NCBI RefSeq assembly: GCF_002087085.1
Contig: NZ_MWQY01000015.1
Coordinates: forward strand, 1 to 64,000
DNA length: 64,000 bases
Reading direction: 5' to 3'
Under the pieces are notes generated by a model that was given only the letters and a program-made list of their open reading frames with translations, did no database searches and was not told the DNA's origin. A program made the translations under genes and the position numbers. Positions 20,938 to 31,808 of the stretch are shown here, in pieces. Every line of letters starts with the position of its first letter. The stretch's first letter is position 1.

Positions 20938-21006
20938 TAAAAAAGGCGAGACCTGTACGGCCTCGCCTGAGTGCTGTTTCCTGTTGCTGATACAGCCTTT
21001 GAGTTT

Positions 21007-29408: not shown

Positions 29409-30739
29409 TCCAGCCTGCAGGTGGACCCGTACTTGTCAAAATCAATCCAGTCGATGCCCAGGGGTGAGGGAGGAAGCGCTCCCCGTTTATACATCCCCGG
29501 AGTCTCCTGCTGCAGGGTGGGGGTAAATTTTTCCCAGGAGAGTTCCGTTTCTTCCGCACTGACAAAAAGCGTCCGGTCACCCCGGATGGCATCGAGCAGG
29601 AGCCTCTGGTAGGCTTCGGGGATCTCGGCATCCAGAAAACTCGAGGAATAACAGAAGGTCATGTTGGTTGAGCTGATCCTTCCGCTGCCTCCGGGTTCCC
29701 TGGCGATAAAATCCATTACAATCCCGGCATCGGGCTGAATATTGAAGATAATCTGGTTGGGCGGAATCTGCCCCTCGGTGTTATAGAGCAGATGGGGACC
29801 CGGCTTGAAGCGGATCCCTATTTCCGTACCCTTTCGATGGACCGCTTTACCGGTCCGGACGTAAATGGGAATTCCGGTCCACCGATAGTTGTTTATCGTC
29901 ATCTCAAGCTCGGCATAGGTTTCGGTTTTTGAATCCTCCGGAACACCCTTCTCGTCATGGTATCCCCGGTACTGCATCTTGGCCCAGCGTTTGACCTCCA
30001 GGGCTTTGAGAATCTGCATCTTCTGTATCCGGATCTCCTCCGCTTCGAGGTTTATGGGGGCTTCCATGGTCAGGAGGGACAGAAGCTGCATCAGGTGGTT
30101 CTGTACCATGTCGCGAATAATACCGGCTCCGTCAAAGTAGGCACCCCGGTCTTCCACGCCGATATCCTCCAGGGCGTTGATCTGGATCGATTCTATATAC
30201 CGGGAGTTCCATATGGGATAAAAAACAGCGTTGGCAAAGCGGAATACCAGAATATTCTGGACCGCCTCCTTGGCAAGGTAATGGTCGATCCGGAAGATCT
30301 GGAGTTCGTGGAAGTAGCGCTGAAGATCGGCGTTGAGCTTCCGGGCACTCTCCAGGTCGTAGCCGAAGGGTTTTTCTATGATCAGGGTCGTCTCGTCCCT
30401 GAATCCCTCGCGGTGGAGCTCCGCTGCTGTATGAGCGTACACCCTTGGGGGAAGGGAGAAGAAAATAATAACCCGCCTGAATTCCCGGAGGGAAAAGATA
30501 AAGTCCCGTATGCCCTCGGTGCCCTGGTGGTAGTAAAGGAGCTTGCTGAACTCTTTATCCCGGTTGAAATGAGCGCGGAACTCCTCGTGGCTGAAGGGGG
30601 TCCGCCCAGAGCCAATTACCCGGCAGGTGTCATCGATCTCCTTCTTCTGAAAAAGACGCTCTAATGCAGGAATGAGCTTGCGCTTTGCAAGGTCTCCAGA
30701 GGCTCCCAGTATGATTATGGCTGAATCTGAAACGGGCAT
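29405..30739 (-). CDS. zwf: Glucose-6-phosphate 1-dehydrogenase
   Basis: GASGDLAKRKL.PAL, EKPFG, RIDHYLAKE, RDMVQNHLMQ, RTGK. Confidence 0.96.
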   Translation of the reverse strand: MPVSDSAIIILGASGDLAKRKLIPALERLFQKKEIDDTCRVIGSGRTPFSHEEFRAHFNRDKEFSKLLYYHQGTEGIRDFIFSLREFRRVIIFFSLPPRVYAHTAAELHREGFRDETTLIIEKPFGYDLESARKLNADLQRYFHELQIFRIDHYLAKEAVQNILVFRFANAVFYPIWNSRYIESIQINALEDIGVEDRGAYFDGAGIIRDMVQNHLMQLLSLLTMEAPINLEAEEIRIQKMQILKALEVKRWAKMQYRGYHDEKGVPEDSKTETYAELEMTINNYRWTGIPIYVRTGKAVHRKGTEIGIRFKPGPHLLYNTEGQIPPNQIIFNIQPDAGIVMDFIAREPGGSGRISSTNMTFCYSSSFLDAEIPEAYQRLLLDAIRGDRTLFVSAEETELSWEKFTPTLQQETPGMYKRGALPPSPLGIDWIDFDKYGSTCRLD

Positions 30740-30769
30740 AGGTAATCACTCTCCTGTAGAGATGTCTAT

Positions 30770-30798
30770 AAGATAGAAAGAAGAGGCAATACTGGCAA
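30770..30798 (-). promoter_or_regulatory. sigma70 promoter of zwf
   Basis: TTGCCA-17-TATCTT upstream of an AGGAG SD. Confidence 0.6.
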
Positions 30799-30822
30799 GG
30801 GGTGGATAAGGTATAAAGGGGA

Positions 30823-30933
30823 AAGGTCATAGAGCCCGCCGGAACGAGGTACGTTGATTCAGATTGAAGTGCAGCATGTACCCCGGAAGAGGAGCTGAAG
30901 GTGCGCAAGCTGCTCCGGCAAGCTCCCTGACTT
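30823..30933 (-). ncRNA. Candidate ~110-nt structured small RNA of unknown family
   Basis: 5' and 3' ends form a 20-bp stem (19 pairs, 4 G-U) enclosing two hairpins. Its own TTGATG-17-TATACT promoter ends 5-6 nt before the stem. Confidence 0.6.
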
Positions 30934-30938
30934 CCGGC

Positions 30939-30967
30939 AGTATAGGTGAATTGTAAAAAAACATCAA
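30939..30967 (-). promoter_or_regulatory. sigma70 promoter of the candidate sRNA
   Basis: TTGATG (30967-30962)-17-TATACT (30944-30939). Confidence 0.6.
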
Positions 30968-31008
30968 GAGTAAATAGAGAAAATTTATAAATCGCTTAAA
31001 ACCCCTGT

Positions 31009-31698
31009 TCAGGCAAGGATGTGATAATAGATCCCCAGGTAAAAGAAAATCGAACCGGCCAGAACAAAGAGGTGCCATATTCCATGATGATAGGGAAGCC
31101 GCTTCTGGGCATAGAACGCGACGCCTATCGTGTAACTCAAGCCCCCGGCCAGGGCCCAGAAAAGGAATTCCCGGGGAATTCGCGTCACCACCGGCTGCCA
31201 GAAGAAGACGATAAGCCAGCCCATGGCCAGGTAGACCGCTACATGGAAGATTTTGAATCGGTTCCAGAAGAGCAGCTTTATTACAAAACCGACAGCTACT
31301 ATTGCCCAGAGAATGGTTAAAATGACGGGGCCTTCGGGCTCCCAGATCCGAAAAGCAACCGGGGTATAGGTACCGGCTATAAGGAGGTAGATGGCCAGGT
31401 GATCAAAGATGCGTCCAATGCGCTTTGCTGTGTCCTGTTTTACCCAGTGATACACGGCGGAGGAACCGTAGAGGACCAGCATGGAGAGGGAGTAGGCCGA
31501 AGCGCTGAAGATCATCCAGGGGCGACCCCCCTCAATGGCCCGCATAACGAGGGGTACTGTACCGATAAAGGCAAGAATGAAACCTGCAAGATGGGTAAGG
31601 GCGTTAATTTTTTCGTCCCGGGGGGACTGGTCTGATTTCAAGGGAATTCTGCTTGTAAGCCAGCGATGAAATCTGCCGGCATCTTCGTGATTATTCAT
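31009..31698 (-). CDS. Hemolysin III / PAQR family membrane protein
   Basis: E..NALTH, SSAVYH, FDHLAIYLLIAGTYTP, HGIWHLFVLAG. ATG 31698. Confidence 0.93.
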   Translation of the reverse strand: MNNHEDAGRFHRWLTSRIPLKSDQSPRDEKINALTHLAGFILAFIGTVPLVMRAIEGGRPWMIFSASAYSLSMLVLYGSSAVYHWVKQDTAKRIGRIFDHLAIYLLIAGTYTPVAFRIWEPEGPVILTILWAIVAVGFVIKLLFWNRFKIFHVAVYLAMGWLIVFFWQPVVTRIPREFLFWALAGGLSYTIGVAFYAQKRLPYHHGIWHLFVLAGSIFFYLGIYYHILA

Positions 31699-31808
31699 TG
31701 TCTCTATGCTACACGGATACGGCAATCAGTACAATTGCCTGTGTTAAATGATGCTCCCGTCGTCCAATTCTGTTGCAATTCCGGGCCTTCCGGATATACC
31801 CTTAAGGT

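Follow-up and report, generated by a model that had tools for sequence, protein, structure and literature searches.

Stem-loops at the 5′ ends of bacterial mRNAs, such as the hairpin in the ompA 5′ untranslated region and the rne leader hairpin bound by RNase E, serve to stabilise or regulate the transcripts that carry them. Here we describe a 106-nt structured element upstream of zwf, the gene for glucose-6-phosphate dehydrogenase, in a 64-kb stretch of contig NZ_MWQY01000015.1 (assembly GCF_002087085.1), referred to below as the window. The source genome (G000; 4.2 Mb, 97% complete) was compared with its relatives in Marispirochaeta, a genus of marine spirochaetes represented by six genomes (G000–G005) in three clades. 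The element is real, conserved, unannotated and RNA-like, and it is restricted to this one genus; we read it as a lineage-specific structured RNA tied to zwf that fits no described RNA family. With a probability of about 40%, we take it to be the 5′ module of a transcript that would start at a distal promoter and run toward zwf, and not a terminated stand-alone gene. Like the ompA and rne hairpins, it places a helix at or next to the predicted first transcribed base of a long single-gene leader, and it would need no downstream platform. Unlike them, it is a 106-nt rod of two helices, one of them near-invariant, with a second promoter before the gene, and its transcript is a predicted one.

The original prediction had placed a TTGATG-17-TATACT promoter on the minus strand with a long stem at its predicted start, and both were confirmed (Table 1). 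Its count of 19 paired positions out of 20 between 30931–30912 and 30845–30826 in G000, including four G·U or U·G pairs, was correct by hand, the remaining position being a G·A mismatch, and the closing helix was recovered in both the minimum free energy and the centroid folds. The claim that the G·U pairs favour the minus strand also held: the minus strand of a 126-nt stretch folds at −46.5 kcal/mol (z −2.60), a value equalled by 1 of 200 shuffles, against −43.2 kcal/mol (z −1.05) and 27 of 200 for the plus strand. In the folds of all six orthologues the closing helix, P1, is formed, with z scores of −3.08 to −5.36 and 0–1 of 200 shuffles as good.

On the minus strand the element is a rod made of the 17-pair P1, a side region of 26–28 nt, the 8-pair helix P3, and a loop of approximately 26 nt. 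Common to the six genomes, P1 pairs nucleotides 1–4 and 6–18 with 89–101 and 103–106. Sixteen of its 17 pairs are constant and one alternates between G·U and A-U. A tandem U·G (columns 11/97 and 12/96) is present in all six genomes, and the non-pair at column 5/103 is kept in all six as well, as G·A in five and as A·C in G003. P3, which is the GGGGUAC/GUACCUC helix in G000, is also common to the six genomes; four of its eight pairs are invariant, one has a one-sided change, two show compensatory substitutions (A-U replaced by G-C in three genomes and C-G by U-A in one), and one contains a single unpaired cell. Its position in the element is asymmetric, 28 nt from the 5′ arm of P1 and 1 nt from the 3′ arm. 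The region between the 5′ arm and P3 differs among the three clades in both sequence and small hairpins, and the P3 loop is as variable. Thus, of the three-way architecture proposed earlier, P1 and the GGGGUAC/GUACCUC helix stand in all six genomes, whereas the AGCU…AGCU hairpin is found only in the clade of G000, G004, and G002. The CU-rich linker resembling an anti-Shine-Dalgarno sequence does lie at 30894–30885 and is likewise confined to that clade, as is the repeated GCAC(C)UUCA loop motif, which had been put forward as a feature of the fold. Since neither linker nor loop motif is genus-wide, there is no conserved single-stranded seed for a base-pairing small RNA (sRNA).

Two other roles for the interior were considered. 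By eye, a 16-codon frame runs in G000 from an AUG in the P3 loop to a UGA in the 3′ arm; as a small peptide it was rejected, the frame being broken in G004 by a 1-nt length change and lacking the AUG in G005. As for a CsrA/RsmA sponge, a class with multiple GGA motifs in its loops, no conserved loop GGA was seen by eye among the orthologues, and the GGA of G000 is inside P1 (CCGGAGC).

The six orthologous elements were aligned (alignment A1), and a covariance model (R1) was built from the six. In A1, 99.3% of the 150 cells are paired, compared with 33–44% when the partners are slid by 1–3 columns, and the covariation score was matched by 10 of 500 shuffles; over three clades, these pairing statistics are suggestive of a conserved structure. 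The P1 arms are identical at 33–36 of 36 positions in all 15 genome pairs, while the fourfold-degenerate sites of zwf are 35–49% identical in 14 of the 15, near saturation, which argues for strong sequence-level constraint on the arms. It is unusual for both strands of a 17-pair helix to be frozen while synonymous sites are saturated, and this suggests that the helix is recognised by its sequence, beyond the need to pair. Outside P1 and P3, the interior matches at 17–23 of 52–54 positions between clades; with its length held, it is constrained in a lineage-specific manner. For example, G000 and G002 share 52 of 54 interior positions at 45% identity of the zwf fourfold sites, and their promoter spacers differ.

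The linkage to zwf is strict, with the gene downstream of the element in all six genomes. The upstream neighbour is a haemolysin-III-family (HlyIII) gene in three of them, a HAD-like gene in two (by eye), and a 477-codon open frame in one; on the other side, an AraC-family gene lies beyond zwf in three. Since both outer neighbours vary and zwf is constant, the conserved unit extends from box 1, an A/T-rich 13-mer, through the distal promoter, the element, and the proximal promoter to zwf. The distance from the element to the zwf start codon is 79–94 nt in five genomes and 243 nt in G001, which carries approximately 150 nt extra between the proximal promoter and zwf (L101, 1606–1850).

The geometry of the promoters is conserved along with the fold. 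In G000, seven bases separate the distal −10 hexamer from G30931, with the start predicted at G30931 or 1 nt before it. The distal −10 ends 7 nt before P1 in four of the six genomes (at least 9 of 12 matches), despite differing spacers. By eye, the distal promoter of G005 and G001 reads TTGTAA-17-TAATAT, with 8 of 12 matches, and ends 9 nt before P1. Both have 24 nt inserted between their old −10 and the element (about 1470–1500 in both L098 and L101); the insertion brings a new TAATAT, the old −10 region then acts as −35, and the promoter seems to have been rebuilt and not lost. The separate zwf promoter of the original prediction is likewise present and conserved: a proximal promoter with at least 9 of 12 matches lies 54–60 nt after the element in five genomes, and that of G003 reads TTGCCT-17-TATCTT (8 of 12, by eye). 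Relative to the element, box 1, AATTTTCTCTATT, is displaced outward by 24 nt in G005 and G001; it is a possible UP-like element or regulator site. Its own genome shows no enrichment of the 13-mer (17 matches with at most one mismatch, 10 for the reversed control), and it was rejected as a regulon motif for that reason. The promoter–element block is flanked by a 16-nt direct repeat at 75% identity, whose copies coincide with the proximal −35 (30794–30809) and the end of the HlyIII gene (31012–31027); G004 and G002 lack this repeat, and it is probably due to chance. On the minus strand the order is the end of the HlyIII gene, box 1, the distal promoter, the element, a pyrimidine-rich tract with the proximal promoter, and zwf (Table 1).

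Table 1 Features of the zwf locus in G000, with positions in the window.
Feature	Position	Strand	Remarks
HlyIII gene	31009–31725	−	Upstream neighbour of the element in G000
Box 1, conserved A/T-rich 13-mer AATTTTCTCTATT	30973–30985	−	Just 5′ of the distal −35 hexamer; identical in 6/6 genomes
Distal sigma-70-like promoter TTGATG-17-TATACT	30939–30967	−	−35 at 30967–30962, −10 at 30944–30939
Structured element	30826–30931	−	106 nt in G000, 105–107 nt across relatives
P1 5′ arm GUCAGGGAGCUUGCCGGA	30914–30931	−	Pairs with 30826–30843; 16/18 positions invariant in 6 genomes
Variable side region (P2/linker), 26–28 nt	30886–30913	−	Sequence clade-specific, length conserved
P3 5′ strand CGGGGUAC	30878–30885	−	Compensatory changes in 2/8 P3 pairs
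P3 3′ strand GUACCUCG	30845–30852	−	Partner of the P3 5′ strand
P1 3′ arm UCCGGCGGGCUCUAUGAC	30826–30843	−	17/18 positions invariant in 6 genomes
Pyrimidine-rich, G-poor tract after P1	30756–30825	−	C 36%, G 6%, T 41%; contains the proximal promoter
Proximal zwf promoter TTGCCA-17-TATCTT	30770–30798	−	54–60 nt after the element in 5/6 genomes
zwf, glucose-6-phosphate dehydrogenase, 444 aa	29405–30739	−	Pfam G6PD_N 5.3e-41, G6PD_C 3.1e-87

Arms conserved far beyond the needs of pairing, with 16 of 17 pairs never varying at near-saturated divergence, could also be DNA operators. In that case two near-invariant 18-bp inverted boxes, 87–89 bp apart centre to centre, would bind a regulator of the tandem promoters, for example by looping, and the RNA fold would be incidental. 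The length of the element, held at 105–107 nt while the interior drifts, speaks for this, as does the position of the boxes, one at +1 to +18 of the distal promoter and the other about 45–65 bp upstream of the proximal −35. We nevertheless consider operators improbable, since the arms make a poor DNA palindrome: at 30600–31200 there are no inverted pairs with a 7-base seed, because arm pairing needs G·U. Apart from the mismatch at column 5/103, the asymmetries between the arms are all G·U on the minus strand (columns 6/102, 11/97, 12/96, and 49/86), and the asymmetric placement of P3 and its compensatory changes fit RNA folding. The adjacent AraC-family gene is present in only half of the genomes, and a search of G000 with the arm consensus, GAGCYYGCCGGA, was uninformative (235 matches with at most one mismatch vs 71 for the control).

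An inverton, in which inverted repeats flank an invertible DNA switch, would also account for inverted repeats around a short segment next to promoters, but it is hardly credible here. All six genomes carry the interior in one orientation; reverse-complement comparisons score −9 to −16, close to the shuffle means of −7 to −11, whereas forward comparisons score 0 or above in 13 of 15 pairs. At conserved positions the two arms are not identical, a scan of seven neighbouring proteins found no recombinase family, and the RNA-library contigs described below contain no strand-changing joint.

The element occurs once per genome in all six Marispirochaeta genomes, with covariance-model scores of 96–112 bits in the five other species. 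Among the 151 genomes of the class, the model found none in the 145 outside the genus; two 22-bit matches there (G091 and G063) were discarded, their helices being mispaired. A blastn search of 41 genomes returned the genus only, plus a 29-nt chance match in G034 (E 0.0075). The two-arm pattern scan covered genome contigs from one genome for each of 185,579 species and gave 81 stretches, of which 80 loci were fetched and scored. Three of these are real (at least 96 bits), all from the same genus, and the other 77 score no higher than 23.5 bits and are chance matches from GC-rich genomes. A metagenome scan gave one locus, identical to that of G004, and neither viral contigs (0 matches) nor plasmids gave any match. 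Upstream of zwf, the sister genus, which is the one other genus in the family (one genome, G006, 81% complete), has no such element, nor do the more distant G023, G007, and G021; in G006 the spacer upstream of zwf is about 95 nt with a plain promoter. In G019, zwf is at a contig end and the upstream DNA is missing. The zwf match of G007, of the same class (C9:90043–91356), contains one in-frame TAA, which could mean that the gene is broken, that two genes are present, or that the sequence is in error.

This distribution bears on a further possibility, a relic or domesticated miniature inverted-repeat transposable element (MITE) that the ancestor of the genus acquired upstream of zwf. Correia, RUP, and ERIC are miniature inverted-repeat elements of about 100–150 bp, and the zwf element, at about 106 bp, is like them in its size, its terminal inverted repeats (about 18–20 bp), its intergenic site near promoters, and the long hairpin that it would form when transcribed. 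A variable interior, as in Correia or RUP, and the absence upstream of zwf in G006, G023, G007, and G021 also suit a past insertion. Unlike Correia, RUP, and ERIC, the element is single copy and orthologous in location, and strong purifying selection acts on its arms long after any insertion. In a blastn search of its own genome, the element matches itself alone beyond 33 nt; a supposed second copy on contig C2 (33 nt, 85%) is inside a long uninterrupted frame, read as coding by eye, and was dismissed as chance. The real loci of the pattern scan all belong to one genus, viral contigs and plasmids have none, and no consistent target-site duplication was seen by eye. A MITE is therefore very unlikely, and the dispersed repeat that would have undone the original prediction was not found in any of the six genomes.

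No known RNA class was matched, as had been judged by eye from the sequence. In the window, none of the 4227 models of Rfam 15 reached its gathering threshold, and ARAGORN found no tRNA or tmRNA gene. A permissive Rfam scan of 30650–31100 (E ≤ 10) gave only two chance-level matches, both on the plus strand (MIR854, 10.9 bits vs a threshold of 50; HOLDH, 10.5 vs 319.4), and models of the CsrB/RsmY type did not match. The element resembles 6S RNA, the signal recognition particle (SRP, 4.5S) RNA, and Y/YrlA RNA in general form, with a helix joining the 5′ and 3′ ends, an asymmetric internal loop, and a helix conserved as if recognised by a protein. 6S RNA, about 180 nt long, has a central bubble between a closing stem and a terminal stem. 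Unlike 6S, the element has a one-sided loop of 26–28 nt and is 106 nt long, against 187 positions in the 6S model. That model (RF00013) found nothing in the G000 genome, the element included, and it is insensitive, being positive in 5 of 14 control genomes; a divergent 6S RNA may thus exist in G000, whose genome is 97% complete. The SRP model (RF00169) does not match the element, and the genome has its own SRP RNA at C4:25718–25816 (66.1 bits). Unlike the setting of Y/YrlA RNAs, no TROVE/Ro gene (PF05731) was found in the 97% complete genome, and there is no Rfam match to Y RNA. In the part of the literature on Marispirochaeta and on zwf riboswitches or small RNAs that was available to the search, no RNA upstream of zwf in spirochaetes is reported, and the same portion reports no genetics in the host organism.

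A riboswitch, or another leader that senses a ligand for zwf, would be expected upstream of a metabolic gene and could have a multi-helix fold with a long P1, as seen here. The conservation is the reverse of an aptamer's, with invariant helices around a junction and loops that are unconserved between clades, and the element is separated from the gene by a promoter. Neither a conserved terminator or anti-terminator nor a helix sequestering the Shine-Dalgarno sequence was found in five aligned leaders, and no riboswitch model of Rfam matched even at E ≤ 10. We regard this explanation as very improbable.

No intrinsic terminator, i.e., a stem with a U-tract, follows P1; the tails after P1 in the six genomes are CUUUCCCC, GUUUUCC, AUUUUUA, AUACUUU, AUACUUC, and UCUAAUC. 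Terminator-like sites do occur in the window (35 in 20 kb vs 22.0 ± 5.3 in shuffles), for example at 20968–20944 and 38392–38371. The pyrimidine tail of the original prediction, and a longer pyrimidine-rich tract, are thus present, but they supply no intrinsic terminator that would define a species of about 110 nt. Over the 70 nt after P1, all six genomes have 6–14% G and 26–36% C. C-rich, G-poor composition is that of a Rho loading (rut) site, and the tract may be a candidate for one. Only 1 of 12,786 windows of 70 nt (both strands of the 64 kb) has at most 10% G and at least 75% pyrimidines, a count given without its place; the G000 tract itself (G 6%, C+T 77%) satisfies both limits. G000 encodes both Rho and RNase III.

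The original prediction had named both a stand-alone sRNA or protein sponge and a long zwf leader, and between these two we lean slightly to the leader. As an sRNA, the element would be transcribed from the distal promoter, ended by Rho or by processing after P1 at approximately 110–180 nt, and would act in trans, most plausibly as a protein platform or sponge through its invariant helix and not through a seed. RoxS/RsaE, SgrS, and Spot 42 are lineage-specific trans-acting sRNAs for central metabolism, and the element is like them in being about 100 nt long with its own promoter, beside a carbon-metabolism gene, in a narrow taxon. The positional conservation of that promoter, the separate conserved promoter of zwf downstream, the rut-like tract in all six genomes together with a Rho gene, and an interior conserved within a clade (G000 and G002, above) are all consistent with an sRNA, as is a self-contained fold with no conserved pairing to the zwf leader. 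RoxS/RsaE, SgrS, and Spot 42, however, have conserved seeds (C-rich loops in RsaE) and intrinsic terminators, whereas the element has neither, and they show no Rfam sequence or structure match to it. Strict linkage to zwf would be needless for an RNA acting in trans, and the RNA-library contigs run, as a weak indication, from the element almost up to the zwf start codon. In favour of the leader over the sRNA we counted the missing terminator after P1, though canonical ones exist in the same window, the lack of a single-stranded segment conserved across the three clades, these contigs, and the presence of Rho and RNase III genes. A stand-alone sRNA is the somewhat less likely of the two.

RNA coverage was taken from four metatranscriptome runs, as contigs that carry no strand or end information and may include DNA. 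Contigs over the element were found in two of the four runs (X1 and X2), both from one study. The 185-nt contig of X2 corresponds to 30743–30927, ending 4 nt from the P1 start on one side and 4 nt before the zwf ATG on the other. The 527-nt contig of X1, from a relative, corresponds to 31050–30822, followed by 82 replaced letters and the start of zwf. These contigs are a weak hint of an RNA that covers the element and continues toward zwf. The HlyIII gene region (31101–31800) is uncovered in all four runs and zwf is partly covered in all four, though gaps between contigs prove nothing. In the X1 contig, the element and promoter carry 1 difference in 229 nt, and the zwf start carries 34 in 154. 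The divergence of element and gene is discordant in the other direction between G000 and G004, where zwf fourfold sites agree at 71% but the interior at just 44 of 54 positions; both patterns could stem from uneven constraint or from recombination among members of the genus.

If the element is a leader module, its own sigma-70-type promoter would start a transcript whose first base opens P1, and P1 would stack on P3. The near-invariant P1, with its tandem U·G and conserved mismatch, would be the working part. It could shield the 5′ end and also offer a protein or RNase III a sequence-specific target. Behind it, Rho could stop the transcript in the C-rich, G-poor tract, and P1 or the stretch right behind it would then determine how much distal transcription arrives at zwf. 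The proximal promoter would give basal expression of zwf, and a stable 5′ fragment of approximately 110 nt may accumulate as a by-product.

Several observations weigh against the leader module. First, the conserved promoter of zwf itself, between the element and the gene, would make the leader dispensable for expression. Second, promoter-like matches of 9 of 12 are common (20 in 20 kb vs 11.7 ± 3.3 in shuffles), and the evidence for the promoters is their conserved position and not the match score. Third, the covariation evidence is limited by six sequences in three clades: compensatory changes affect 2 of 25 pairs, a count matched by 83 of 500 shuffles, and P1, with 16 of 17 pairs invariant, yields no covariation signal. 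Fourth, in an RNAalifold prediction from five full leaders, omitting G001 with its insertion, the element formed no conserved pairs with the zwf ribosome-binding region, and no expression platform was visible. Likewise, neither conserved strand has a conserved pairing site in the zwf mRNA of the six genomes; duplexes with the short strands are at most 2.4 standard deviations better than shuffles (2 of 12 are slightly worse than the shuffled mean), and their positions differ in all six. Folding the full-length element with zwf mRNA gave meaningless whole-length duplexes and was set aside, as was a 9-nt match between the P2 loop and zwf codons ~20–23, seen by eye in G000 and G002 and absent in G004 and G005. 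Finally, the X1 contig extends to 31050, upstream of the predicted start, and the transcript, its ends, and any effect on zwf are predictions.

If it is transcribed, the element would be a young RNA gene or leader that all sampled species of the genus possess and the sister genus lacks upstream of zwf, and it could therefore show the recruitment of a new RNA element to a central-metabolism gene. In other respects it is one more lineage-specific candidate RNA, plausible and not surprising to a specialist. A more specific proposal, which we think unlikely, is that the invariant helix docks a protein or nuclease that gates distal transcription into zwf according to redox or sugar-phosphate state. 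On this proposal, the element would be a new protein–RNA control module that arose within one genus and is devoted to regulating entry into the oxidative pentose-phosphate pathway.

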